A stretch of DNA of 64,000 nucleotides from an uncultured Acidobacteriota bacterium (GCA_963805975.1 CAWDVR010000006.1:96001-160000), one strand, 5' to 3'. Positions 14,672 to 33,800 are shown, counted from the stretch's first letter. Made by a program: numbers and translations. The notes: generated by a model from the sequence alone, not told the origin.

Positions 14672-14815
14672 GAGGTCTCCTGGGGCGTCCTTCAGTCCTA
14701 CGAATCGTATAGGAGATTCAACGGCAGGTGCGGAGCGTCGGCTCCCGCTCTCACCCTAATACCTCCGGCCCCCGCGGTCGTCCCTGGTCTCGAACGTTGA
14801 CCCGAGGAGGACGAC

Positions 14816-16034
14816 ATGCGAAGCACTCTACGTTTTTTTCTTGCCTTGTGCCTGGCCTCGACGGCCGCCATCCGGGCGGCGGAGGCGGCCCCGCTCAGGG
14901 CCCAGGTGGCGCGCTGCAACGGCCTGGCGCTCGAGGACTCGGCCACCAAGGCGGTGGGGAACACCGAGGACCTGCGGACGATGGAGGTGCAGTTCGGCTA
15001 CGCGGCTTCGAGCGCCGCCACGAAGCAGGACGAGCTCGACGACACGGACACGGTCGAGATCTGCTCGGTGAGCCTCGGCTCCGGGGTCCGGTGCCCGTGG
15101 GCCGACGCGCAGGACGAAGCCTGGCTGGTCTTCGACAAGGCCCCGATCCGGGGCACGACGGCCGCCTCGTAGGGCAGGAGATCTTTATCCGCGCCGCGCC
15201 CATCGCGGCCGGGCAGCCGGTCCTGGGCGCCGCGGTCTGGGCGAAGATCACGGCACCCGGCGGCTCGACCCACTACTTGCAGCTCGACGACGACGGCCAG
15301 CACCAGGACGGCCGGGCGGACGACGGTCCCTACGGCGCCCTGTTCGTGGAGACCGGCCAGGCCGGCGCGTACTCGATCCGCGTGGTGGCGGCCGGCGTGT
15401 CCCCGGTCTCCGGCGCTCCCTTCCGCCGCGAGCAGATGCAGGCGGTGGCGCTGCGCCACGACCGCGACACCGACCGCGACGGCCTGCCGGACCTGTGGGA
15501 GCTGACCCACGGGTTCGACCCGCGGGCCACGGACGATCCCCGGTGGGCTGCGGCCCGACGGCGAGCGGCCCGTTCGAGATCGTGTTCAGCGGCCGCGGCC
15601 CGGTGAACGGCGTGCTGACGGACCGGGCGGACAACGATCGCCCCGCCTGCTACCGATTGCGTCCGCTGGTGGACGTCGCGGCGGGTGACTGGTCGGAGGG
15701 GGTCTGCGTGACCCCGCGCCCGGACCCGTTCCCGCCGCGGGTGGAGCTCACCCTGCTGCGCGCCTCGGCCTCCGAGGCCACGATCAGGATCGAAGCTTGG
15801 GAGATCCCGGCGCTGGGAGAGGAGGAGGAGCTGCTCGATCCCGAGACCCTAGTGAGCGGGGCGGCCGAGATGCGCATCTCCACCCGCGCCGACTTCGAGC
15901 GTGCGGCGTGGGAGCCGTACGAGCCCAAAGCCACGATCCGCCTCGACGGCAGTGGCCCGCAGACGATCTACGTCGAAGTGAGAGACGTGGCCGGAAACGT
16001 CTCCGACCCGGCCGAGCTGAGGGTGAAGGACTGA
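14816..16034 (+). pseudogene. Frameshifted secreted protein in three frames (signal peptide; choice-of-anchor-X-like segment; DxDxDGLPDxWE Ca-binding repeat; C-terminal Ig-like segment)
   Basis: GAGGAGG RBS and signal peptide at 14816. The coding sense moves near 15150 to LQLDDDGQHQDGRADDGPYGALF...DTDRDGLPDLWELTHGFDP, then near 15550 to ...QTIYVEVRDVAGNVS. Two -1 shifts would restore about 406 aa. Confidence 0.55.
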
Positions 16035-17230: not shown

Positions 17231-17473
17231 GCCGAGAGCATGATAGCAGCCCTTTTTCGCGAACCGAGCAGGTCCGACAATGTGCAAATGCGCCGGCAAC
17301 GTCGAGCAGGTGCTAAGAAAACCTGTGCTAGGCTTTGCACCGTCTTATGTTCATAGACCCAATCCTTTCCGTCGGTTGCTCGTCGTTCGAGCACTGACCG
17401 AGGTCGGGGTTCCGTGCGGCAGCAAATGGTTCCGGGCTCGCTCGCGAGCCCGGCTCTTCAAGGGGTGCCATCG

Positions 17474-20400
17474 ATGACCAAGAGGTGCAGCAGGGACCGT
17501 GGACACGCGCGCGGGGCAAGGCTCGCCGTAGCGCTGCTCGCGGCGGCAGGTGCATGGACGGCCGGACCGGCCTTCGGCTCCGGCGAGGCCGTGCCCTTGA
17601 ACGCCTTCAACATTCCTCCCGGCGCCACGGTCACGATCACTTTCGACGTCAACGTCGACAGTCCGCTCGGCGTCTGCGCCTCGGCGGTCTCCAACCAGGG
17701 CACCGTCACCGGCAACAACTTCTCGAACGTCCTGACCGACGACCCGGACGCCGCCGGCGCCGCCAACCCGACGGTGACCGGCCTCGACGCCGTGGACCTC
17801 GCCATCACCAAGACGGACGGGGCCGCGAGCGAAGTGCCGGGCACCGGCGTCACCTACACCATTACGGTCACCAACGCCGGACCGTCCAGCGCCGTGGGCG
17901 CCACGGTGGCGGACACCTTCCCGGCGGCCCTCAGCGGCGTCACCTGGACCTGCGCCGCCTCGGCGGGCTCGAGCTGCACCAGCGGGCCGGTGGGCGGCAA
18001 CATCAACGATCTGGTGACGATTCTCTCCGGCGGCACCCTCACCTACACCGTCAACGCCACGGTCAGCGCCAGCGCCTCGGGCACCCTGGTCAACACCGCG
18101 ACAGTCACCAAGGCCGCCAACCAGATCGAGTGCAACCTCGCCAACAACAGCTCGACGGACACCGACACGCTCGCCCCGCAGGTCGATCTCGCGATCACCA
18201 AGACGAACGGCGTCACCTCGGTGGATGCCGGCAGCCCCACGACCTACACCATCACCGTCACCAACCCGGGCCCGAGCGACGCGGTGGGCGCCACGGTGGC
18301 GGACACCTTCCCGGCGGTCCTCACCGGCGTCACCTGGACCTGCTCCGCCTCGGCAGGCTCGAGCTGCACGGCCGGGCCGACCGCCGGCAACATCAACGAC
18401 GTGGTGACGGTGCGCGCCGGCGGCACGCTGACTTACTCCGCCACCGGCACGGTCTCCGGAACGGCCACCGGCACGCTCTCCAACACCGCCACCGTGACCG
18501 CGCCCGGCGGCACCACCGACACCAACGGCGGCAACAACAGCGCCACCGACAGCGACACCATCAACCCGCTGGCCGACCTCTCGATCACCAAGACCGACGG
18601 CGTCACCACGGCCGTGCCGGGGATGAGCGTCACCTACACCATCGTCGCCTCGAACGCCGGCCCGGCCACCGCCACCGGCGCCTCGGTGACTGACACCTTC
18701 CCAGTGAGCCTCACCTGCACCTGGACCTGCGTCGGGGCCGGCGGCGGCACCTGCACCGCGGGCCCGGTGGCGGGCAACATCGCGGACTCCGTCAACCTGC
18801 CGGCCAGCGCCTCGGTCACCTATACCGCGGTCTGCGACATCGCCGACGCCGCCACCGGATCGATCAGCAACACGGCGACGATCGGCGGCGGTGGAGTGGT
18901 CGACAACACGCCGGGCAACAACAGCGCCACCGACACCGACACGCTGCGGACCCTGGACTTCGGCGACGCGCCGCACTCCGTGCTCGGTCCGCCCTGGCAG
19001 TACCCGACGCTGCTGGCCGACAACGGCGCCCGCCACGGCGTGGTCACCGGCTTCCGCCTCGGTGCAGCCATCGACTCCGAGGCCGACGGCCAGCCGACCG
19101 CCAACGCCGACGGCGACGACCTCAACGGCGCCACCCCCGACGACGAGGACGGCGTCACTCTGCCGGCGTTCCTCGTCACCTGCGAGTCGGCGAGCGTGAC
19201 GGTCAACGCCTCCGCGGTGGGCAAGCTCGACGCCTGGGTGGACTTCAACCGCGACGGCGATTTCACCGACCCGGGCGAGAAGGCGATCAACAACCTGGCC
19301 CTGGTGGCCGGCGCCAACCCGGTGAGCCTGGCCGTGCCCTGCACGGCCACGGTGACGGCGCAGACCTTTGCCCGCTTCCGCCTCTCCACCGTGGGTGGCA
19401 TCGCCGCCAACGACGTGGCAGCGGACGGCGAGGTCGAGGACTATCCGGTGGCGATCCGCGGCCTCGACTTCGGCGATGCCGCCGATCCGTCCTATCCGAC
19501 CCTGGTGGCGTCGAACGGCCCGCGTCACGTGCTGGGCGGCGGCGGCCCGATCCTCGGCGCGCAGGTGGATGCCGAGGCCAACGGCCAGCCGAGCGCCGGT
19601 GCCAACGGCGACGACCTGGCGGGTCTCGACGACGAGGACGGCGTGACCTTCACCTCGCCGCTGGTCCCCGGCCAGACCGCGACGGTGAGCGTCACCGCCT
19701 CGGCGGCCGGCGTGCTCAATGCCTGGATCGACTTCAACGCCGACGGCGGCTTCGGTCAGCCCGGCGACCAGATCTTCACCAACGCGGCGGTCGCGCCGGG
19801 CCCCAACAGCCTCAGCTTCCCGGTGCCGGCAGGGGCGACCTCCAACACCGCCACCGTGGCCCGCTTCCGGGTGGCCACCGCGGGCGGCCTGTCGTTCACC
19901 GGCGCAGCGGCCGACGGCGAGGTGGAGGACCACCCGGTCACCACCGCGCCGGTCGCCGACCTCTCGATCACCAAGACCGACGGCTCCACGACCGAGGTGC
20001 CCGGCACCAGCGTCACCTACACCATCGTGGCCACGAACAGCGGCCCCAACCCGATCATCGGCGCCACGGTCACCGACACCTTCCCGGCGGCGATCAGCGG
20101 CGTGTCCTGGACCTGCGTCGGCGCGGGCGGCGGCACCTGCACGGCGGGCCCGGTGGCGGGCAACATCAACGACACGGGCAACCTGCCGGTCGGCGCCACG
20201 GTCACCTACACGGCCACGGGCACGATCTCGGCCGCGGCGACCGGTACGCTCGTCAACACCGCGAGCGTCGCCGTGCCCGCCTCGGCCTTCGATCCCAACG
20301 GCGCCAACAACAGCGCCACGGACACCGACACGCTGACGCCGCAGACCGACCTCGCGATCACCAAGACCGACGGCGCGGCTTCCGAGGTTCCTGGCACCGG

Positions 20401-22484
20401 CGTCACCTACACCATCGTGGTGACCAACGCCGGGCCCTCGAACGCTGTGGGCGCGACGGTGGCGGACACCTTCCCGGCGAGCATCAGCGGCGTCAACTGG
20501 ACCTGCGTCGCCGCGGGCGGTGCCTCCTGCGCCGCGGGCGGCAGCGGCAACATCAACGACACGGTGAACGCTGCCGGTAGGCGGCAGCGTCACCTACACC
20601 GCCACCGGCAACATCTCCGCCTCGGCCACCGGCACGCTCGTCAACACGGCGACCGTGACCGCGGCCGCCGGCGCCACCGACCCCAACCCAGGTAATAACA
20701 GCGCCACCGACACCGACACGCTGACGCCGCAGACCGATCTCGCGATCACCAAGACCGATGGCGCCGCCAGCGAGGTGCCCGGCACGCCGGTGACCTACAC
20801 CATCGTGGTGACCAACGCCGGGCCTTCGAACGCCGCGGGTGCGACCGTGGCGGACACCTTCCCGGCGGCGATCAGCGGTGTCAACTGGACCTGCGTCGCC
20901 GCGGGCGGCGCTTCCTGCGCCGCGGGCGGCAGCGGCAACATCAACGACACGGTGAACGTGCCGGTGGGCGGCAGCGTCACCTACACCGCCACCGGCAACA
21001 TCTCCGCCTCGGCCACCGGCACGCTCGTCAACACGGCGACCGTGACCGCGGCCGCCGGCGCCACCGACCCCAACCCGGGCAACAACAGCGCCACCGACAC
21101 CGACACGCTGGCCGCGGAGGCGGACCTCGAGATCACCAAGGAAGACAGCGCCGATCCGCCGCCGGCCGGCCAGGATCTGATCTACACCCTCACCGTGGAG
21201 AACCTCGGTCCGTCCGATGCGCTCAACGTGGTGGTGAGCGATGCGCTGCCCTCCGAGGTCACCTACGTGAGCGACGACTGCGGCGGCACCAACACTCCGC
21301 CGTGGACCTGGAACGTCGGCACCCTGGCGGACGGTGCCACGGTGACCTGCAACATCACGGTGTCGATCAACCCCACGCCGCCGGCCTCGATCTCCAACAC
21401 GGCGACCGTGGATTCCGACACCACGGACCCGGTCTCGGGCAACGACTCGGACACCGAAGAAACCCAGCTCGACGCCATTCCTCCCCAGGTGGACAACGTC
21501 GACAGCGTGGCCGGCACCGGCGACGGCGAGCTCACGGAGTGCGAGACCGCCAACGTCGAGGTCAGCCAGCTCCTCGTCACCTTCAGCGAGGAGATGAACG
21601 ATCCGCCGGGCGACACCGATCCGGGCGACGTGACCAACCCGGCGAGCTACCTGCTGGTCAAGCCCGGCCCGGACTTCCAGTTCGCGACCACCGGCTGCAC
21701 CGGGGTGGCGGGCGACGACGTGGCGGTGACCATCACCTCGGTGACCTACGACAGCGGCACCGACACCGCGACGCTCCACCTGGCCGGCGACCTCGCCGAC
21801 GCGCAGCACCGGCTCTACGCCTGTGCCAGCCTGACCGACCTGGCCGGCAACCCGCTCGACGGCGACGGCAGCCGCGGCCCGGTGGGCACGGACTTCGTGC
21901 GTGGCTTCCGCGTCGACGCCGACAACCTGCTGGCCAACGGACACTTCGACTGCAACCTCCTGAGCTGGACCGAGATCGAGCCGACCAGCGGCGAGGTGGA
22001 GTGGGATGGAGATGACGCGGACACCGCGGTCACCTCCGGCTCCACGGAGGTCGTCAACCTGATGCCGGGCCTCGACACCAGCTTCGGCCTGTCGCAGTGC
22101 GTGCCCGTGCCGGGCAGCACCAAGCTCGACCTCTCGTCGCGGGTACGCCTGACGGCCGGAGCGGGCGTCTCGCTCTCCTTCGTGCGCTCCTGCCAGTTCT
22201 TCTCGTCGGCCGCCTGCACCGGCAGCCTGGGCGGCCCGTCCGATGCCTTCCTGCTCTCCGACACCGGGGGCACCTGGCTGACGTTCGCCCGCCAGGTGGA
22301 CTCCGCCGCCGGCGCCGCCTCCGTCCGCTGTGAGTTCCGCTTCGCGACGCCGACCGGCGTCAGCTTCGACGGCGCGATCGACCAGCTCTTCCTGGGTCTC
22401 ACCGGGGAGATCTTCTCGGACGGCTTCGAGACCGGCGACACCAGCCAATGGACGCAGTGCGTCGGCCTGGGGTGCCCGCCATGA
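17474..22484 (+). CDS. Giant secreted surface protein (about 1669 aa once one +1 frameshift near 20570 is corrected): half DUF11, 7 DUF11 repeats, 2 GEVED domains, Ig-like and CBM-like domains, IFSDGFETGD tail
   Basis: Joins ORFs 17414..20695 and 20655..22484. Repeated DLAITKTD..VTYTI.VTN.GPS..VADTFP..NTATV..NNSATDTDT; two DFGDA..GEVED domains. Comparing adjacent repeats shows one extra base (aacgctgccg vs aacgtgccg). Confidence 0.85.
20306..21110 (+). repeat. Near-identical 387-nt tandem duplication (two DUF11 units)
   Basis: The NNSATDTDTL anchor starts at 20306, 20694 and 21081 (spacings 388 and 387 nt), with near-identical DNA between anchors. Confidence 0.85.
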
Positions 22485-22543
22485 GCCACCTACGGAGCGC
22501 CAGTGAATACAACCGTGAAGCCGCCTGCGAGGAGACTCCTAGC

Positions 22544-25500
22544 ATGACCAGATCCCTGAGCAGCACCATCAGGGTTGCACTCGACAGTAGGAAAACGCGG
22601 CGCGCCGCCGCGCGGAAGCTGGCGCTCCTCCTGGTGCTGGCCTCGAGCGTGGCGGCTCCCCAGGCAGGGGCCGAGGTGGGCTTGCAGTACGTGCCCGTGC
22701 CGGCCGTCGAGACCGCACTGCCGCCGCTGCCCCCGACCACCCTGTTCCCCGTACAGCTCGTGGTGGACGACGACGCTGCCGAGGGGGTGGTGGGAGTGGC
22801 CGGCCAGACAGCACGGCAGTTCCTGTGGTTCAACCGCTTCACCCCGGGCGTGCCGTTCTCGCTCGAGGAGGTCTGGGTGCTGTTCACACCGGGCCCCAAC
22901 ATGGCCCTGGGCAACGCCATCCAGCTCGCCATCTACTCCGACGCGGACGGCAACCCGGCCAACGGCGCCACGCTGCTCGCGAGCTTCAACCAGACCATCC
23001 TGGCGCTCGACGGCAACACCTTCTCCGTCTACCCGCTGCCGGCGCCGGTCGACTTCGACGGCGTGGGCGACCTGCTGATCGGCGTCATTCCCCGCTTCAT
23101 CGTCAGTGGCGTGACCTCTCCCACGCAGCCGGCTTCGATCGACACCACGGCGAGCGAGGGCCGCTCGTGGATCGGCGTCTGGTCCACCGACCCGCCCGAT
23201 CCGCCGGTGCTCGTGCCGCCGCCCGACCAGCAGATCTCGACCATCGACGGCTTCCTGCCCGGCAACTGGATGGTCCGCGGCTTCGGCACTCCGGCCGAGA
23301 CGCTCGCCATCCCGACTCTCGGCGGTGGCGGCCTGCTGCTCCTCGCCGGCCTGCTGGCGCTGGCGGCGGGCGCCGTGCTGCGCCGGCGGGCCCGCGGCGC
23401 GGCCCTCCTGGCCCTGGCGCTGGCGGTGGCGAGCCCGGCCCTGCCGGCCGTGGCCCAGACCAACATCGACACCTTCACCACCAACCAGGCCACGCTCAGC
23501 GCGCCGCCCGACTCGAGCTCGACGGCCACCGGGGGCGCCGACATCATCGGCACCCGCCGCGGCCTGGTGGCGAGGAACCTGACCGGCGTCGGCCCCACGA
23601 CGGCAGGAGTCACCGGCGGCAGCCTCACCTTGCTGGTCACCAATACCACCCCCGATTCGCGGGGCGAGGCGCGCCTTTCCTGGGACAACGACACGGCTCC
23701 CGGCACCCTGAACCCGACTGGCCTGGGTGGCGTGAACCTCACCACCGGCGGCGCGAGCGGCTTCCGCATCCGCGTCAACTCGGCGAGCGTTGCCGGCAGC
23801 GAGATCGAGATGGTCGTGCACTCGAACGCCACCTCCTCGTCGCGGGCCTCGCTGGTGCTGCCCCTCGTGGCCGCACCGCAGAACTTCGTGCTGCCGTTCT
23901 CCGAGTTCATCCAGGCCGGCACCAGCGCCGCCAACTTTGCGAGCGTCGGTGCCATCGAGATGACGGTGCGGAGCCGAGAGGGAACCGTGGTGCTGGACGA
24001 GGTGGTGACCGCCTTACCGGTGATCGCCGCCACCAAGGCAGACGCCCTGGTGATCGACAACGACAGCGACACCAAGGCCGATCCCGGCGACCGCGTGCGC
24101 TACACAGTGACCATCACCAACACCGGCAGCGAGGGGATCTCCGTCGACCTGACGGATACCGTGGACTCCAATACCACTCTGGTGGGCGGCTCGGTGAGCT
24201 CGACGCCGGTGGCGAAGAACGACCAGTACACCTGGTTCGGCAACGTCACCCTGACGGTGGACGGCACGCCTTTCCCGGCGCTGCTCGCCAACGACACCGA
24301 TCCGGACGGCGACACGGTGACCATCTCCGCCTTCGACGCCACCACGGCGCAGGGCGGCTCGGTCACGGGCGTGAACGTCAACACCGGCGAGTTCACCTAC
24401 AACCCACCCGCCGGCTTCCGCGGCGTGGACTCCTTCAACTACACCATCGTCGACAACGACGCACACACCTCGGTGGCCTCGGCGCGCATCACGCTCGAGG
24501 GCATCGTCTGGTTCGTCGACGACTCGAACACCACGCCGCCGCACCTCGGCACGCTGTCCGACCCGTTCCAGAGCCTGGCGAGCCTCGGGGGTTCCGACCC
24601 GGATGCGCCGGGGGACATCCTCTTCATCTTCGACGACGACGGCACCCCCTACGCCGGCGGCCTGGTCCTGGAAGCGAACCAGACCCTCCTGGGCGAGGCC
24701 GAGGGCTTGGTGCTCGGCGGCCAGACCATCGTGCCGGCGGGCGGCAGACCGCAGATCACCAACGCGGCGGGCGTCGGCCTGACGCTGGCGACCGCCAACA
24801 CCGTGCGCGGTCTCGACGTCCAGGCAACGAGCGGGGCCGGGATCGCCGGCACCTCCTTTGGCACCCTGACGGCCAGCAACGTCAACGTCATCAGCGCCGG
24901 CGGCGCGGCGCTCGACCTCGCGACCGGCAACCTGGCGGCGACCTTCGGCACCCTGTCCTCGAGCGGCACGGGCGGGCAGCGCGGCATCCAGCTGGTGACC
25001 GTCACCGGCTCGCTGACCGTGACCACCACGAGCCTCACCAACCCGACGACGCAGGGCATCCGTGTCGCCAGCTCGCCGGCGGTGGTGCTCGACTTCGGCA
25101 ACACCACCATCACCGACTCGGCGGTGGGCTCCGGCGCCACCGCCATCGGTATCGACGTGGCGACCGGCAACGCCGGCGCGAGCTTCACCTTCGACAGCCT
25201 TGCCGTGACCACCGATGCCGGCGCCGGCCTGCTGGCCAACGGCAGCGGCACCGTCAACATCGGCGGCGTGGGCAACACGATCAACGCCACGGGTGGCGCG
25301 GCGGTGGACATCACCTCGACCAGCCTGGGCAGCGGCGCCACGTTCTCGACGCTCACCTCCACCAACTCCGCCGGCAAGGGCGTCAACCTCGACACCGTCA
25401 CCGGCAGCTTCACCGCCACCGGCGGCTCGATCAGCGGCCCGGCCGGGATCGGCTTCGACCTCAACGCCGGCTCGGCGAACGTCACCTACGCCGGCTCGCT

Positions 25501-27280
25501 GAGCAACACGGCGAACAACTTCCTGATCGAGGTCACCGGCCGCACCGGCGGCACGGCGAGCTTCTCCGGGAACCTCTCGGGTACCAGCAACAGCGATGGC
25601 ATCCGGGTGGCGAACAACAACGTGAGCGGCTCACCCGTCATCAACTTCAGCGGCGCCACCAAGACCCTCAACACCGGCGCGTCCGCGGCCGTCACCCTCG
25701 ACAACAACGACGTGGCGACGATCAACTTCACGGGTGGTGCCCTCGACATCGACACCACCTCCGGCATCGGCTTCAACGCCATCAACGGCGCCGTGGGGAT
25801 CACCGTGCAGGGGAGCGGCAACACCATCGACTCGGGAAGCGGCACGGCGCTCAACGTCGTCGCCACCACCATCGCGGCGGCCGACCTCAACTTCCAGAGC
25901 ATCTCGGCCAACGGCGCCGCGAGCGGAATCGTGCTCAACGCGACCGGCGCCAGCGGCAATCTGCTAGTCACCGGGACGGGGGCCGCGAACAGCGGCGGCA
26001 CGATCCAGAACTCCACCAGCCACGGCGTCTCGCTGACCAACACGCTCGCCCCGTCGTTTACCTCGCTGCGCATTCAGAACAGCGCCGGCAGCGGCGTCTT
26101 CGGGACCCTGGTCAACGGGTTCTCCTACATCAACGGCCTGATCGACAACTCGGGCACCGGCCTCGCCGCCGAAGCCTCGAACATCGCCTTCAACACCACC
26201 GCGGCGGGCACGGAGAACAACCTCTCGGGAACGGTGACGATCACCGGCAACACCCTGACCAACGCCTACTACCACGGGGTCGACATCTTCAACTTCAGCG
26301 GCACGATCGCCGACGCCACGATCTCGGGGAACACCATCACCAGCACCAACTCGACGGCGACGTCGAAGGGCTCCGGCATCCGCTTCATCGCCTTCGGGTC
26401 GGCAGCGACGATCGCCAACGTCACCAGGGCGACGATCGCCAACAACATCATCTCCAACTTCCCCAGCGCCACCGGCATCATGGCGCAGGGCGGCAACGGC
26501 AACGCCGCGGGGCCGGCAGGCGTCTTCGGGACTGCCGGCAGCGGCAGCGACATCATCGCGATCACGGGCAACCGCGTCGCCGGCTTCAGCGCGGCCAACC
26601 GCCTCGGCACGCAAGCCATCCTCGCCGTGGTCAACGGCAAGGGCCAGGGCAACTTCAACGTCTCGAGCAACGGCACGGTGGCCAATCCGCTGACCAACTC
26701 CATCGGCACCACGATCGCGGTGTCGTCTCTCGGCCAGGCGGTGGTCACCGCGACGGTCTCGAGCAACGTCATCGTCTCGAACAACGCGGCAGGGGCCAAC
26801 GGCATCGGAGCAGGTACCAGTCAGACGTTCGGGGCGACGGATACCCCGAGCCTGACGGTCACGATCTCGAACAACCAGATCAGCCAGACGGACGGCAACG
26901 GCATCCTGGCCACGGCGCGCGATGCCACCGGAACGCTGCGCGCGAAGATCCAGAACAACACTGTGGCGGCGCCGCTGGCCGGCAACCGGAACGGAATCCG
27001 AATCGACGCTGGCAACGCCGTGAGCATCAACGACTCGGTTTGCTTGAACATCTCGGGCAACACGACCGCAGGCGTCGGCCTCTCTCCCGAGGGGATCGGC
27101 CTGCGCAAGCAAGGGACCGTCGCGGCGACCAACAACTTCGCCCTCCACGGATTCGCGACCTCCCCGGCCAACCAGGCGCAGACGGCGGCTTACGTCACCG
27201 GACAGAATCCGGGTAGCTCGAGCGGGACCCTGATCATCGCCGGCGACAATTTCAACTCCCCGACCTGTTCGTTCCCTTGA
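22544..27280 (+). CDS. Giant secreted protein / probable polyprotein: signal peptide, domain 1, internal IPTL-CTERM plus second signal peptide, beta-sandwich domain, half DUF11, cadherin/Big_9-like Ig, long beta-helix
   Basis: GAGGAG RBS before ATG 22544 (alternative ATG 22481 overlaps the upstream stop). Internal IPTLGGGGLLLLAGLLALAAGAVLRRR; LLANDTDPDGD..GEFTYNPPAGFRGVDSFNYTI; about 900 aa of N/T/G/S-rich right-handed beta-helix-like repeats. Confidence 0.85.
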   Translation: MTRSLSSTIRVALDSRKTRRAAARKLALLLVLASSVAAPQAGAEVGLQYVPVPAVETALPPLPPTTLFPVQLVVDDDAAEGVVGVAGQTARQFLWFNRFTPGVPFSLEEVWVLFTPGPNMALGNAIQLAIYSDADGNPANGATLLASFNQTILALDGNTFSVYPLPAPVDFDGVGDLLIGVIPRFIVSGVTSPTQPASIDTTASEGRSWIGVWSTDPPDPPVLVPPPDQQISTIDGFLPGNWMVRGFGTPAETLAIPTLGGGGLLLLAGLLALAAGAVLRRRARGAALLALALAVASPALPAVAQTNIDTFTTNQATLSAPPDSSSTATGGADIIGTRRGLVARNLTGVGPTTAGVTGGSLTLLVTNTTPDSRGEARLSWDNDTAPGTLNPTGLGGVNLTTGGASGFRIRVNSASVAGSEIEMVVHSNATSSSRASLVLPLVAAPQNFVLPFSEFIQAGTSAANFASVGAIEMTVRSREGTVVLDEVVTALPVIAATKADALVIDNDSDTKADPGDRVRYTVTITNTGSEGISVDLTDTVDSNTTLVGGSVSSTPVAKNDQYTWFGNVTLTVDGTPFPALLANDTDPDGDTVTISAFDATTAQGGSVTGVNVNTGEFTYNPPAGFRGVDSFNYTIVDNDAHTSVASARITLEGIVWFVDDSNTTPPHLGTLSDPFQSLASLGGSDPDAPGDILFIFDDDGTPYAGGLVLEANQTLLGEAEGLVLGGQTIVPAGGRPQITNAAGVGLTLATANTVRGLDVQATSGAGIAGTSFGTLTASNVNVISAGGAALDLATGNLAATFGTLSSSGTGGQRGIQLVTVTGSLTVTTTSLTNPTTQGIRVASSPAVVLDFGNTTITDSAVGSGATAIGIDVATGNAGASFTFDSLAVTTDAGAGLLANGSGTVNIGGVGNTINATGGAAVDITSTSLGSGATFSTLTSTNSAGKGVNLDTVTGSFTATGGSISGPAGIGFDLNAGSANVTYAGSLSNTANNFLIEVTGRTGGTASFSGNLSGTSNSDGIRVANNNVSGSPVINFSGATKTLNTGASAAVTLDNNDVATINFTGGALDIDTTSGIGFNAINGAVGITVQGSGNTIDSGSGTALNVVATTIAAADLNFQSISANGAASGIVLNATGASGNLLVTGTGAANSGGTIQNSTSHGVSLTNTLAPSFTSLRIQNSAGSGVFGTLVNGFSYINGLIDNSGTGLAAEASNIAFNTTAAGTENNLSGTVTITGNTLTNAYYHGVDIFNFSGTIADATISGNTITSTNSTATSKGSGIRFIAFGSAATIANVTRATIANNIISNFPSATGIMAQGGNGNAAGPAGVFGTAGSGSDIIAITGNRVAGFSAANRLGTQAILAVVNGKGQGNFNVSSNGTVANPLTNSIGTTIAVSSLGQAVVTATVSSNVIVSNNAAGANGIGAGTSQTFGATDTPSLTVTISNNQISQTDGNGILATARDATGTLRAKIQNNTVAAPLAGNRNGIRIDAGNAVSINDSVCLNISGNTTAGVGLSPEGIGLRKQGTVAATNNFALHGFATSPANQAQTAAYVTGQNPGSSSGTLIIAGDNFNSPTCSFP

Positions 27281-27378: not shown

Positions 27379-27885
27379 ATGGCGGAACCGTTCTTGTCCG
27401 AGATACGAATCATGAGTTTTGGCTACGCCCCGCGGGGTTGGGCGCTCTGCAACGGGCAGCTCTTGCCCATCAACCAGAACCAGGCGCTGTTCTCGCTGCT
27501 GGGCACCACCTTCGGCGGCGACGGGCGGGTGAACTTCGCGCTTCCCGACCTTCGCAGCAGGGCGCCGATCCACGTGGGCTCGGGCCACACGCTGGGCGAA
27601 CGCGGCGGCGAGCAGGCGCACACGCTGTCGATCGCGGAGCTGCCGGAGCATACGCATGTCTGGAATGCGAATGGCTCACCTGCCACCACCAATACGCCGG
27701 CCGCCTCGCTGCTCTTGGCTCAGTCCACCGGCGATTCGGCCTGGGGACCCGCGTCGAACCTGGTGGCGATGAGCCCGGCCACGATCGTCAACGTCGGTGG
27801 CAGCCAGGCGCACCTGAACATGCAGCCGTTCTTGACCCTCACCTTCAGCATCGCTCTTGTGGGCATCTTCCCGAGCCCGAACTGA
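27379..27885 (+). CDS. Phage tail-collar domain protein (microcystin-dependent protein/MdpB-like), copy 1
   Basis: FLSEIRIMSFGYAPRGWALCNGQLLPINQNQALFSLLGTTFGGDGRVNFALPDLRSR; HTH (HxH) motif; HLNMQPFL; GGAGGAG RBS. Confidence 0.92.
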   Translation: MAEPFLSEIRIMSFGYAPRGWALCNGQLLPINQNQALFSLLGTTFGGDGRVNFALPDLRSRAPIHVGSGHTLGERGGEQAHTLSIAELPEHTHVWNANGSPATTNTPAASLLLAQSTGDSAWGPASNLVAMSPATIVNVGGSQAHLNMQPFLTLTFSIALVGIFPSPN

Positions 27886-27895
27886 GGAGACGCCA

Positions 27896-28405
27896 ATGGC
27901 ACAACCTTATGTAGGCGAGATCCGGATGTTCGCTGGCAACTTCGCGCCGGCAGGGTGGATGTTCTGCGAGGGCCAGTTGCTGCCGATCTCGGAAAACGAG
28001 ACGCTGTTCAACCTCATCGGGACGACCTACGGCGGCGACGGTCAGTCGACCTTCGCCCTGCCCGATCTGCGCGGGAGGATCCCGATCCACCAGGGCAACG
28101 GCTTCATCCTGGCCGAGACTGGCGGAGCAGAGCAGATCACGCTCACGATCAATCAGATCGCCGCGCACTCCCATCCCGCGCTCGGGTCCACCAACACCGG
28201 GACCGGGACGGCGCCCCTGAACAACGTGCTGTGCAACCTGCCAGTCGCCACGAACTCGGCCTATGGCACTGACAACCCGCAGGCCACCTTGAGCCCGCAG
28301 TGCATATCGCCGGTCGGCGGAAGCCAGCCGCACACCAACTTCCAGCCCTACCTCTGCATCAATTTCATTATTTCCCTGTTCGGGATCTTCCCGCCCCCGA
28401 GCTAG
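27896..28405 (+). CDS. Phage tail-collar domain protein, copy 2
   Basis: YVGEIRMFAGNFAPAGWMFCEGQLLPISENETLFNLIGTTYGGDGQSTFALPDLRGR; HSH; HTNFQPYL; GAGGAG RBS. Confidence 0.92.
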   Translation: MAQPYVGEIRMFAGNFAPAGWMFCEGQLLPISENETLFNLIGTTYGGDGQSTFALPDLRGRIPIHQGNGFILAETGGAEQITLTINQIAAHSHPALGSTNTGTGTAPLNNVLCNLPVATNSAYGTDNPQATLSPQCISPVGGSQPHTNFQPYLCINFIISLFGIFPPPS

Positions 28406-28414
28406 GAGGGAGAC

Positions 28415-28933
28415 ATGGCCGATCCGTTTGTCGCAGAGATCCGCATCTTCCCGTTCAACTTCGCGCCCAAGGGTTGGGCGTGGTGCGACGGTCAGCTTCT
28501 GCCGTTGTCGCAGAACACGGCTCTTTTCTCGCTCCTGGGCACGACCTATGGAGGAAACGGCAAGAGCAACTTCGCTCTTCCGGACCTCCAGGGGCGCTCC
28601 CCCATGCACCCCGGGCAGGGTCCCGGCCTCTCGCTGCACGACCTCGGCGAGACCGGTGGCAGCGAGACGGTGACCTTGCTCGAGAGCGAGATCCCATCGC
28701 ACAGCCACGGCTTGAGAGCTTCTGCTCAGGACGCGACGACGCGCATCGTAAGTGGCCAGGAGCCGGCGACCGGCATCGGGGTCTCGATCTACGGGCCCCA
28801 ACCCGGGAGCGTGACGCTAAGCCCCGCCGTGCTCGCGCCCGCTGGCGGCGACCAGCCGCACAACAACCTGCAGCCTTACCTCACGTTCTACTTCTGCATC
28901 GCACTCCAGGGCGTTTTCCCGCCTCGTACCTAG
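28415..28933 (+). CDS. Phage tail-collar domain protein, copy 3
   Basis: FVAEIRIFPFNFAPKGWAWCDGQLLPLSQNTALFSLLGTTYGGNGKSNFALPDLQGR; HSH; HNNLQPYL; GGAGG RBS. Confidence 0.92.
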   Translation: MADPFVAEIRIFPFNFAPKGWAWCDGQLLPLSQNTALFSLLGTTYGGNGKSNFALPDLQGRSPMHPGQGPGLSLHDLGETGGSETVTLLESEIPSHSHGLRASAQDATTRIVSGQEPATGIGVSIYGPQPGSVTLSPAVLAPAGGDQPHNNLQPYLTFYFCIALQGVFPPRT

Positions 28934-28959
28934 GCCGATAGCGATCGTGGTCCCTTGCG

Positions 28960-29010
28960 CGACCTCCCGGCCCGATGACGAGCCGGGAGGTCGTGGCTGT
29001 TTTTCTGTTT
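28960..29010 (+). terminator. Terminator/attenuator-like hairpin after the tail-collar genes
   Basis: Perfect 12-bp stem CGACCTCCCGGC / GCCGGGAGGTCG (28960-28993), then TGGCTGTTTTTCTGTTT. Confidence 0.55.
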
Positions 29011-29049
29011 GTTCTCCAATCTTGCTTATGCCCAATCTGGAGGTGAGCC

Positions 29050-29811
29050 ATGGGATGGCCCGAGGGGAGCGCTGCGCCCGAGCGCGGCGGAGTCGACCGC
29101 CGTGAGTTCCTGACCCTGACCTCGACCGCTGCCGCCGGAGCCTGCCTGGCCGGTGGCGCCGGGGCGAGCACGCTCCTCGGCCTGCACGCGCCGCTGGATC
29201 TGGCCATGTCCGTGGGCTTCCTCGCCGGCAGCGAGGAGTACGATCACTTCTGGGCCTTGCCCTGGAACGTGGCCCAAGACCCGTTCGACCCGCCAGAGCT
29301 CGAGGTGGTGGCCGCCGACCGCCTGCCGCTGGGCGATCAGACCCTCGCCGGCGGCTCGGTCTGGATGACCGTGCACGGCCTCTATCCGCGGCTGCCGAAG
29401 CGGGAAGTGCTCGCCTTCCGCAGCGTCAACCTGGTGGTGATGTTTCCCTCCCCAGAGCCCGCCCGGCCGGCGCCGCTGCCGTTCATCTCGTGGGGCCTGC
29501 GCCGCAACCCGGCGCGCTCGAGCGGTGCGCGCACCCACTTCGTGGTACCCCTGCGCCAGGAGGACGGCGGCCTGGTGCTGGCCCTCGAGCTGATCCGGAA
29601 CGTCCGCGGCGCCCTGGTCACCGACCGTGCGTTCACCGACTTCACCGTGGACTGGCAGGATGGCCGCCCCAAGCTCCAGCGCGGCATCTACCTTCTGGGC
29701 CTCGCCCCCGGCACCTGGAGCCGGGGCGACCGGCTGCCGACGGCCGGCCAGGAGCCCCGTGACGAGCTCTGCTCGGTGGTTGTAAGCTTCGAGCCCATCC
29801 TGGAGCCCTAG
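29050..29811 (+). CDS. Tat-exported hypothetical protein
   Basis: VDRREFLTL twin-arginine motif followed by a hydrophobic Ala/Gly stretch; GGAGGT RBS; beta-rich body of unknown family. Confidence 0.75.
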   Translation: MGWPEGSAAPERGGVDRREFLTLTSTAAAGACLAGGAGASTLLGLHAPLDLAMSVGFLAGSEEYDHFWALPWNVAQDPFDPPELEVVAADRLPLGDQTLAGGSVWMTVHGLYPRLPKREVLAFRSVNLVVMFPSPEPARPAPLPFISWGLRRNPARSSGARTHFVVPLRQEDGGLVLALELIRNVRGALVTDRAFTDFTVDWQDGRPKLQRGIYLLGLAPGTWSRGDRLPTAGQEPRDELCSVVVSFEPILEP

Positions 29812-29816
29812 CAACG

Positions 29817-30353
29817 GTGCACGGCGAGAACGGCTTCGAGACTGCCCCGGCACTGCCGGGCTCGATCAGCTTCCGGCCGATCCGTGGCGACGACCGCGAG
29901 TTCCTGTACCGGATCTACGCTTCGACGCGGGCGGACGAGCTGGCGATGGTGGACTGGCCGGAGGAGCAGAAGGCGGGCTTCCTGCGCCAGCAGTTCGAGG
30001 CCCAGCACCATCACTACCAGGAGTACTACAAGGACGCGGAGTTCCTGCTGGTGGAGAAGGACGGCGTGCCCGTCGGCCGCTTCTACGTGGCGCGCTGGGA
30101 GAAGGAGATCCGGCTGGTGGACATCGCGCTCCTTCCCGAGCATCGCGGCGCCGGCCTCGGTGGAGCACTGGTCGCGAGCCTGCTGGCCGAGGGCGCCGCC
30201 GCCGGCAAGCCGGTCTCGATCCACGTCGAGGTCTTCAACCCGGCGCTGCGGCTCTACCGGCGGCTCGGCTTCGAGCCGGCGGGCGAGCGGGGTCCCTACG
30301 TCCTGATGCGCTGGACCCCGCCGGCAACCTCTTACGCAAACACCGCCTCGTAG
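29817..30353 (+). CDS. GNAT-family N-acetyltransferase (tail-collar-cassette type)
   Basis: FLYRIYASTRADEL, FLRQQFEAQHHHY, RLVDIALLPEHRGAGLG (motif A), NPALRLYRRLGF (motif B). Confidence 0.9.
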   Translation: MHGENGFETAPALPGSISFRPIRGDDREFLYRIYASTRADELAMVDWPEEQKAGFLRQQFEAQHHHYQEYYKDAEFLLVEKDGVPVGRFYVARWEKEIRLVDIALLPEHRGAGLGGALVASLLAEGAAAGKPVSIHVEVFNPALRLYRRLGFEPAGERGPYVLMRWTPPATSYANTAS

Positions 30354-30631
30354 AGCGCTCCCTTCGCGTCCTTCCCCACCGGGACGAGGAAGATCTCGAG
30401 CGACTCGAAGGCCGGGTTCGTGAGCGCATAGATGCTCTGCGGCAGCACCGGCCCGGCGGGCCCGCGAAAGATCAGCGCGAACGGCTTGCGCTTGGCGTGA
30501 GGCACGGTTTCGCCTCCCAGGGCACGGGTCTGGGTCAGCTCGAGAGTAAGCCGCTCGGTGGGGGAGAGCAGCAGCTCGAAGCTGTGGTTCAAATGCGGGT
30601 CGAACATGGCCTTGTCGAGCGTGTCGAGCAT
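30332..30631 (-). CDS. DUF6916-family protein
   Basis: KPFALIFRGP...LPQSIYAL...LEIFLVPVG....YEAVFA pattern; 99 aa; convergent on the GNAT with a 22-nt overlap. Confidence 0.75.
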   Translation of the reverse strand: MLDTLDKAMFDPHLNHSFELLLSPTERLTLELTQTRALGGETVPHAKRKPFALIFRGPAGPVLPQSIYALTNPAFESLEIFLVPVGKDAKGALYEAVFA

Positions 30632-30801
30632 CGGTCGTCTCCGGGAACCGGGCTGAAAGAACGAGCCAACCTTAGAGCAAGCGCCGCGGGCTGACAACCG
30701 CGGCCGTCTAAGAGCCGGTGGACGGCGGTACGATGGGGTGAAACACTGTTCTCCCTTGGAGCGCCCGTCAGTCTGGCCTGCCCGTGGGCCTGGAGGATCG
30801 T

Positions 30802-33800
30802 ATGCGGATCTCCGAAAGCAGAGTGCGGATCGTCGGCTGGGCGCTCGCGGCCTTGGGCCTAGCGGGCGGAGTGGTCGTCGGCTACTTGATGTCGGGACCC
30901 TCCCGCGAGCTGGTCGAGCGGAGCTCCGGCGGCAAGAAGATGACGAGCCTTCAGCTCGCATTCGAGGCTCAGCGGGCCGAATGGATCATCAAAGACTGGC
31001 GTGGCGATGAGCCACCCCCATTTCCAGACACGGACGGGAAGAAGGCTACCGCGCGGCGCCCCGTCCTCGCTGAAGCACGCAAGAACCTCTCGCTCGACGC
31101 CTGGCTCATTCCCTTCTACGTCGCCCTGCTGACCGGCCTCTGCCTGGTGCTCTCCGGCGCCTACGGCAAATGGCGGGACAACCCGTGGCTGGTCCTCGCT
31201 GCGCTGCCGGCCGTTGCCGGGGCCCTGGACTATCAGGAGAACGCGCTCCTCGCCCAGGAGATCGACCTGGTGGCGGCGGGAGGCGTGCTCGGCGGGCGGT
31301 TGCCGCTCGCGGTGGGTCTGGTCGCGTCGCTCAAGTTCCTGCTCCTGGGCATCGTCTTCCTGGCTCTGCTGATCGTCGGTATCGCGCTCTTCCGCGCTTG
31401 GCTGGCCGGCGCCCTCCGACCCCCACCGAAGCAGGCGTGGGTACCGCTCGAGGGAGCGATCGCCGCGGAGCGGGCCTACCTGGCGGGCCGCAGGAGGTGG
31501 GCGCTCTCTGAAGCGGAGGCTGCGGCCGGCCAGCGGCCGGTGGGTCTGGCCTTCTCGGGCGGCGGAATCCGCGCGGCCACCGTCTGCCTGGGCGCGATGC
31601 GCGCCCTCTCCAAGCTCGAAGTGCTGCCCCGGGTCGACTACCTCTCGACGGTGTCGGGCGGCGGCTACATCGGCTCGGCACTGTCCTCTCTGCTGTCGAT
31701 CAACCGCCGCACCGCGCAGGCCTCGGCGCACGGGCTCGACGACCAGTACCGCTTCAGGCCCGGCGACAAAGCGCTGTTGACCACGCAAGCGGAGCGCTTT
31801 CCCTTCGAGCCCGACCGCAACCTGCAAGAGGAGCTGCGGAAGGATCTCGGCGGGCGGTACGACGGCCGCGTCCAGCTCGGGCACCTGCGCACCCACGGCG
31901 ACTTCCTGATCCGCACCAAGCGGCTCATCCACCGTGACGTGCTGCGCACGGTGGGCACGGTTCTGGGCGGCATCTTCTACCACCTGCTGATGGGCTTCCT
32001 GGTCCTCGCTCTCGTCAGCTCGGCCTACCTGATCGCGGTGTGGCTGATGGCGGATTCAGCGATCGGCAGCGCACCGGAGAACCTGCTGGGCCAGCCTGAG
32101 TTCGCAACCTACTGGCGCCAGCTCTTCGACTTCGGCGACGGCTCGGCACGGCCGTTTTTCCTGGCGATCTTCGTGGGCTTGGTCGCGCTGCCGACCGCCA
32201 TGGCGCTCTGCTCGCTGATCTGGTTCCTGCCGGAGCGCTGGTTCCGCCGCTCCGGCGACACGGTGGAGGAGAACCGTGAGTACCACTCGCTCTGGGCTCT
32301 CTTCACCATCACGCTCCTCGCCGCCATCGCCGTCACCAACTTCGTGATCGAGCGCGAAGGGTACCAGTTGGCCAACATCACTCTGCCGATGGGCGTCTAC
32401 GTCGGCGGCTGGCTCGCCAGCCTGATCCTGCACGCGGTGGTCGCCGTCTCGCCTTCGTTCGGCCGCAACCAGCGTTCCCGGTTCGCCGCCTGGAAGGGGA
32501 TCTTCAACTACCTGACGGCGATCTCGGTGCTGGTCATCCTGGTGCCCTTCGTTCTCGCCTGGATCAACAAGGACGCCAGCCGGAGCTCGGTGTTCGCCAA
32601 CTGGCCGGCGAAGGAGAGCCTGGCGTGGCTGGCCTCTCTCTTCGGCAGCGGCTGGCTCGCCAAGGGCGCGCTCGGTCAGGCGGCGTCCGGCGCCGCGGGC
32701 GGAGGTGGCCGGCTGGCGGCGATCAAGAAGCTGCCGGGAACGCTGCGCAACCTTCTCCTGGGCTTCCTCGTCACCGTGCTGGTGGTGGTGGGCCTGGTGC
32801 TCGTGACCGCCTTTCTGCTGCGTTGGGAGCTGGTGGCCGGTCTCGATCCCGATCCTCTGAGCTTCCGGCTCGGCGTGCTGGGCGCTGCGCTGCTCGCCTT
32901 TCTCCTGCTGGGGTGGGCGATCGATTTCAACAAGCTGTCGCTCCATTTCTTCTATCGTGACCGGTTGGTCGAGGCTTACCTCCAGACCGAGGGACAGGTG
33001 CCGCCAGACGCCCCCGCGGCAGAGGTACCGGGCAGCCTCGATCTGTTGCGCGACAACGGCGAGATGCGCCTCGTGCAGCTGCACGGCGTGCGCGAGGAGC
33101 CGCAGCCCGCGACGCGCGGACCTGCTGCAGCGCGTACCGCGCCCGCAGCCGGCTCGACGGCCCTGCCGAGAGATCTCAACCTCGTGGAGCGGGCGCTCCA
33201 GGCTCTGCCCTTCGGACCCGCGGCCCGCACGCCGGGCGAGCTGGCTCCGGTCGAGGCGGTCACCGGCGCGCCGCTCCACCTGATCGTCACCTGTTTGAAC
33301 CTCACCCGCTCGCGCGACATGACGCGCCGCAGCCGGAAGTCCGACACGTTCGTGTTCTCGAAGCTCTTCTGCGGCTCGGACACCACCGGCTACATGGACA
33401 CCCGGCTCTACCGGAGCGGCGAGACCAAGCTCGCTCGCGCCATGGCCGCCTCCGGCGCGGCGGCCAACACGGCGATGGGCTTCCATACCTTCTTCGCCCA
33501 GGCCATGGCCATGACCCTGTTCAACGTGCGGCTCGGCCAGTGGTTCGAGAACCCGCGCTTCAGGAACGGCGCCCGGGCGCACCGGCGTGAGGGCTGGGTG
33601 TTCTGGCCCGGCTACCTGTGGCAGGAGGTGCGCGGGGCGAGCGATGCGAGCCACCGGCTGGTCCACCTCTCGGACGGCGCGCACACCGGCGACAATCTCG
33701 GGCTCTATCCGCTGCTCCAGCGCCGCTGCCGCCTGATCGTCTCCTGCGACGCGGAGGCCGACCCGGATCTCTGCTTCGGCTCTTTCACCGAGGTGGTGCG

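Follow-up and report, generated by a model that had tools for sequence, protein, structure and literature searches.

SpyTag/SpyCatcher and SnoopTag/SnoopCatcher are engineered pairs, each made of a short one-strand tag and a near-complete catcher. Self-forming isopeptide domains have been split by engineers into protein glues, and a natural counterpart may be encoded in the DNA that we analyze here, a stretch of 64,000 nucleotides from an uncultured Acidobacteriota bacterium (GCA_963805975.1, CAWDVR010000006.1:96001-160000), called the window in the following and numbered from its first letter. Two of its genes, A and B, each carry one half of a domain of the CLIPPER/DUF11 type. We consider it likely that this clasp domain, split over two genes, is rebuilt in trans by two predicted secreted proteins and sealed by a Lys-Asn bond, so that the head formed by protein B becomes fixed to the tip of the stalk formed by protein A.

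The CLIPPER/DUF11 domain (PF01345) has a CnaA-like fold with a Lys-Asp-Asn triad and builds tandem stalk repeats in Gram-negative fibrillar adhesins, and its Lys-Asn bond is visible in the crystal structure 9IFR (PMC12617251). This supersedes the initial annotation of the window, in which such a bond in DUF11 was described as merely proposed. In CLIPPER the bond is intramolecular and lies within one continuous domain, whereas here the halves sit on two chains; neither the word "split" nor the word "discontinuous" occurs in the main text of that report (PMC12617251). By fold and triad the A/B pair is a CLIPPER, but it is not one polypeptide. In RrgA D2 an adhesive domain is inserted between two halves, which interleave and are locked by a Lys-Asn bond (5MKC, PMC5333627), and after separation into the Jo-In pair these halves still react in trans (PMC5333627). 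Here, two halves around an inserted domain in one chain occur in homologues only, and their insert is not the same domain. Unlike the A/B pair, Jo-In is the product of engineering and RrgA itself is one chain. Furthermore, the catalytic Asp belongs to the Asn half in RrgA D2 (PMC5333627) and to the Lys half here, and RrgA D2 is a member of the GBS104-like_Ig family (PF21426), for which our Pfam scans gave no match.

With SpyTag/SpyCatcher the A/B pair would share a split immunoglobulin (Ig)-like domain that seals itself between two chains, but it is natural and consists of two halves of about 65 residues each. By analogy it appears to resemble the half-plus-half Jo-In more than a short-peptide tag, and the comparison with SpyTag/SpyCatcher in the initial annotation is apt for the self-sealing split and less so for the manner of the cut. 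A natural, self-forming interchain isopeptide bond made by strand complementation is described for BsaA of Clostridium perfringens, some relatives of which lack the triad (bioRxiv 2024.11.04.621531). BsaA is, however, a TasA-family homopolymer with one donor strand, while here a single joint would connect two different proteins. Donor and acceptor are not combined on one polymerizing subunit, as in the BsaA/TasA type, since A and B carry one half each, and the domain scans of the window's proteins gave no TasA match. Phage capsids also hold natural interchain bonds, in polymers of one subunit (PMC12617251). We found no report of a natural two-gene split of a self-forming isopeptide domain in the open-access literature, and no mention of a natural split pair in the available text of a 2026 design preprint (10.64898/2026.08.13.744004).

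Results and Discussion

Directly behind its signal peptide, protein A has only the second half of a DUF11 unit, with the Asn at 17693, and protein B has only the first half, with the Lys at 24035 and the Asp at 24155, which passes directly into a Big_9 domain at 24203. Both halves thus read as initially annotated, and the Lys, Asp and Asn that had been called invariant in the full repeats of A are indeed found in 7/7 of them. The window's genome contains exactly one orphan half of each kind, 6.4 kilobases (kb) apart and in two genes, and no second matching half was found within chain A or chain B. Nor did we find free flanking sequence that could complete either half; completion of this kind is what the annotation had named as speaking against a split domain. 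The full repeats of A match Pfam DUF11 (PF01345), and the B half matches positions 5–54 of the 114 in this model with 25.0 bits (cut-off 24.6). Taken by itself, the A half gives no match to Pfam DUF11, and its domain identity therefore rests on homologues. When B is compared with single-chain homologues, its head stops where their disordered linker begins, and mature A begins where this linker ends. The observation of two half-domains in A and B is real and no artefact.

The two halves are parts of one domain family, which takes three forms: an intact domain, a clasp within one chain, and pairs divided between two genes. In the intact form, they lie 10–15 residues apart in tandem arrays (P0095, L069, L116, L147, L148, L154, L158). 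We assigned the fold on an intact homologue, L148, and not on the window's own halves: the model of this copy reached a predicted local distance difference test (pLDDT) value of 96, and its top Foldseek match was the CLIPPER structure 9IFR (E 2e-7, template modeling (TM) score 0.74 by target), with 5MKC at rank 37. A profile of the intact family, run against the PDB sequences, also ranked 9IFR first, albeit weakly (E 0.006). In this alignment the Asp falls on chain position 44 of 9IFR and the Asn on 101, with the Lys just ahead of the aligned stretch; a count by hand against the published numbering agrees with 806 for the Asn and differs by one from 748 for the Asp.

The complete triad is present in 581 of 682 distinct intact domains, which as repeats are not independent of each other. 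The Asn is usually lost once the Asp or the Lys goes, namely in 73 of the 83 intact domains without Asp and in 52 of the 67 without Lys, while the neighboring Gln is retained in 89/91. A coupling analysis of 727 domains placed D50-N115 at rank 1, K9-D50 at rank 3 and K9-N115 at rank 6. With 37 of the top 60 couplings connecting one half to the other, neither half is self-contained. In the models of L148 and of the one-chain form L195, four strands fall on one half and five elements on the other. Some intact domains (L116, L147, P0153, P0163, P0215) have repeatedly exchanged the Asp for Ser/Thr and the Asn for Cys with the Lys kept; this swap could be a different chemistry or a tolerated loss.

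Homologues in which both halves enclose the beta-helix in one chain, which the initial annotation had suggested looking for, do exist. In 65 of the 169 proteins examined, the first half runs directly into Big_9, and 14 of these 65 bear the second half 800–2200 residues further on, beyond the beta-helix and a linker. One protein, P0089, has its second half at the N-terminal side, ahead of a mid-chain IPTL-CTERM and signal segment, and hence represents a fused permutant. The other 50 have no second half, 49 of them with the Lys; some may be fragments, and one is the window's own protein. The clasp was found at 19 genome loci, with the triad in 18, and at two more loci in Saprospiraceae. A model of the L195 clasp (914 residues) gave both halves with confidence, flanking the beta-helix with their strands as in the intact model, and a disordered linker at 791–842. 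Fold searches with this model covered and confirmed the beta-helix only, not the clasp. Many one-chain forms (L031, L032, L035, L037, L038, L105, P0100, P0102) additionally contain, past the beta-helix and ahead of the second half, a domain whose motif is HExGH-like or degenerate and which might cleave or stiffen the linker.

We tabulated 23 two-gene pairs, of which 20 belong to the window's class and have A upstream of B. The order is reversed in three, two from Saprospiraceae and L051. Where relatives of the closest loci carry a name, they are Thermoanaerobaculia. Lys, Asp and Asn, whose conservation in homologous halves the annotation had named as a test, are complete in 20/23 pairs and in 19/20 within the class, at A-half identities of 35–88%. 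The A halves trail a hydrophobic stretch in 23/23 pairs, with values of 1.9–3.0 vs –0.4 to 1.3 in 19 one-chain controls; the stretch in the window's A reaches 2.4, and the homologues P0178–P0265 share the same start. Among 301 sampled genomes of this class, 13 had the B type, with a signal-led A half 3.5–8 kb upstream in 11 and a contig end cutting the locus in the other 2. In a tree of 61 heads, unrooted and with one long branch, the split forms fall into separate groups, and a single grouping was rejected by the approximately unbiased (AU) test (p-AU 0.003).

We then scored the pairs with couplings that were learned from intact domains only and from which the triad had been removed. On the top 30 cross-half couplings outside the triad, native pairs scored 0.86–0.89, compared to 0.63–0.66 for swapped pairs (z 5.6–5.8), and 0/200 control sets of low-ranked position pairs reached the z of the native pairs. 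The pairs are kin, and the control sets share this kinship without removing it. This result points to two separate proteins that co-evolve at a predicted interface. The series from clasp to split and this co-evolution test are what the present analysis adds.

The following assembly can be proposed. Protein A would be exported and cleaved after residue 35, which would expose the Asn half at its N-terminus. Protein B would also be exported and then freed at its internal signal segment, without an anchor of its own. XrtH may help to release the head: the window's genome encodes XrtH with a score over the cut-off, and relatives encode the head part as a gene of its own. ORF B (ORF: open reading frame) has a putative mid-chain sorting segment resembling midcut-by-XrtH (NF033207) and IPTL-CTERM (TIGR04174), with both scores under the cut-off (25.6 bits vs 45 for NF033207). 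The coupling analysis suggests that the two halves would interleave into one beta-sandwich, and we are confident that they dock in trans. The Lys would then attack the Asn with the Asp as the catalyst and with loss of ammonia, as triad conservation, 9IFR and Jo-In suggest, and such a covalent seal between A and B probably forms. The weakest step is the last one, in which A, held at the surface by its C-terminal motif, would give a two-chain fibrillar adhesin. Of the initial proposal that the halves complement each other and staple the head to the stalk, complementation is well supported, while the covalent bond is what we infer from the triad.

Several observations weigh against a sealed, surface-held A/B clasp. 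One class accounts for 20 of the 23 pairs, which are kin, and in L086, L091, L093 and L202 gene B is truncated by the end of its contig, so that a one-chain A half is possible there. Compared with intact domains, the split and clasp forms are shorter by about 12 residues, which make up one short strand (E69–72 of the model). The Asn lingers in 15/67 intact domains without Lys and also in L186. Anchoring of A by its C-terminal motif is a guess, drawn from the presence of this motif at 42 ORF ends. The triad is incomplete in 3/23 pairs, L203 (Lys to Leu) and the Saprospiraceae loci L186 and L191 with two triad residues lost each, and because these triad-less split pairs persist, the joint can exist without the bond.

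These pairs are the first argument for trans docking as one beta-sandwich without a covalent bond, in which the triad would be inherited and the joint perhaps exchangeable. A second comes from the Saprospiraceae genome G401 (L089, L186–L190), where eight B-type matches stand next to one signal-led A half found and where those matches that were read lack Lys and Asp. In addition, oligomers of BsaA that lack the bond stay together until they are heated (bioRxiv 2024.11.04.621531). The 19 of 20 class pairs that keep the triad across such diverged A halves, and the usual loss of the Asn after that of Asp or Lys, speak for the bond, and we regard purely non-covalent docking as unlikely for A and B. 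In G401, L188 ends with a first half and Big_9 and has no beta-helix. The heads of G401 and L048 might be interchangeable, non-covalent tips.

The halves could also be leftovers of a gene fission or rearrangement, with A and B working apart and each half unfolded or trimmed. Neighboring genes can keep such remnants, and at L048, which counts against our proposal as well, three B genes occur without an A half in 13 kb. Pairing was nevertheless found in 11/11 testable class genomes and in lineages outside one clade, the A half always stands at the predicted mature N-terminus, and interface positions co-vary in native pairs, which makes leftovers highly improbable.

A further point against the A/B clasp concerns this copy itself. 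Comparison with the next repeat reveals one extra base at about 20571, in repeat 5, which breaks gene A into the ORFs 17414–20695 and 20655–22484, and gene A is also frameshifted in L082 and L204. The system could be real in relatives and this copy dead, or shedding a truncated stalk without the last repeats and the C-terminal motif. In the closest relative, L081, the frame of A is however unbroken over 1704 codons and seven repeats, and the break in the window falls between repeats that are nearly identical, a setting prone to assembly errors. We give a dead copy very little credence. The extra base may be an assembly error or a strain lesion. Finally, it is hardly conceivable that the halves find their complements elsewhere, in other partners or in full repeats with which they would swap strands: A does carry seven related repeats and the window's genome has other DUF11 proteins, but the repeats of A are complete and of a different subfamily (25–30% identity), the genome has no second orphan half, and mismatched halves score 0.48–0.54 vs 0.89.

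Beyond this locus, we are inclined to believe that an adhesin clasp has repeatedly become a gene-encoded, enzyme-free covalent plug and socket, by which separate anchorless heads are welded to a stalk tip in a sortase-free, two-part Gram-negative adhesin. The triad-less versions, such as G401 with its eight heads and one stalk found, would in that case be interchangeable tips. If the A/B clasp is real, Gram-negative surface fibers could be assembled with neither sortase nor usher, and the display of an anchorless beta-helix protein would be explained. More than 20 diverged natural pairs would then be candidates for mutually selective glues. The series from the intact domain via the one-chain clasp and the fused permutant (P0089) to two genes makes an evolutionary path visible.

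Gene Arrangement and Neighboring Genes

The features of the locus are collected in Table 1.

Table 1. Features of genes A and B and of the adjoining genes, in window coordinates.
Feature	Position	Strand	Remarks
Gene A start and predicted signal peptide	17474..17578	+	ATG at 17474, preceded by a ribosome-binding site; 35 residues
Split CLIPPER domain, second half with the Asn	17579..17782	+	68 residues, directly behind the signal peptide; Asn codon 17693
Full CLIPPER/DUF11 repeats 1–3 of the stalk	17795..18955	+	Triad intact; Pfam matches
GEVED-containing stalk region (PF20009, two stretches)	18956..19950	+	Pfam match
Full CLIPPER repeats 4–7	19958..21480	+	Repeat 5 contains the frame break
C-terminal F-x-DGFE-x-G motif of A	22410..22484	+	Candidate sorting/anchoring signal
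ORF B, first part: signal peptide, unnamed domain, IPTL-CTERM-like segment (23309–23389)	22544..23389	+	Separate gene in several relatives
Second, internal signal-like segment of B	23390..23455	+	Mature B predicted from 23456; gene start here in relatives L082, L092, L093, L094, L202, L204
Unnamed 185-residue domain	23456..24010	+	Precedes an intact copy of the split domain in L056, L112, L113, L114, L116
Split CLIPPER domain, first half with Lys and Asp	24011..24202	+	Lys codon 24035, Asp codon 24155
Ig-like Big_9 domain that opens the insert	24203..24493	+	Model positions 3–89 of 89
Predicted beta-helix head	24500..27280	+	From model and fold matches of homologue L195; C-terminus without anchor
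Three phage-tail-collar-domain genes	27379..28933	+	Pfam

The C-terminal motif of A, in its longer form F-x-DGFE-x-G-x-T-x-x-W...P, ends 42 ORFs in the window's genome (G000), A included. On protein A it gave no match to any Pfam or NCBIfam model, and it looks like an undescribed sorting signal. ORF B (22544–27280) is two proteins in one. The IPTL-CTERM-like and second signal-like segments (23309–23455), also present in P0089 and L088, suggest that such ORFs may give two or three proteins each, and the junction between these segments is a gene boundary in relatives.

Upstream of gene A, two short overlapping ORFs without a Pfam match (14728–16034) precede a protease gene and are possibly pieces of one gene. 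Downstream of B, the stretch 27379–30961 holds the three tail-collar genes followed by an unnamed gene, a GNAT gene and a DUF6916 gene. In 39 of 50 loci with this beta-helix head, whether one-chain or split, collar genes lie next to it, and one may speculate that their products bind or cap the head.

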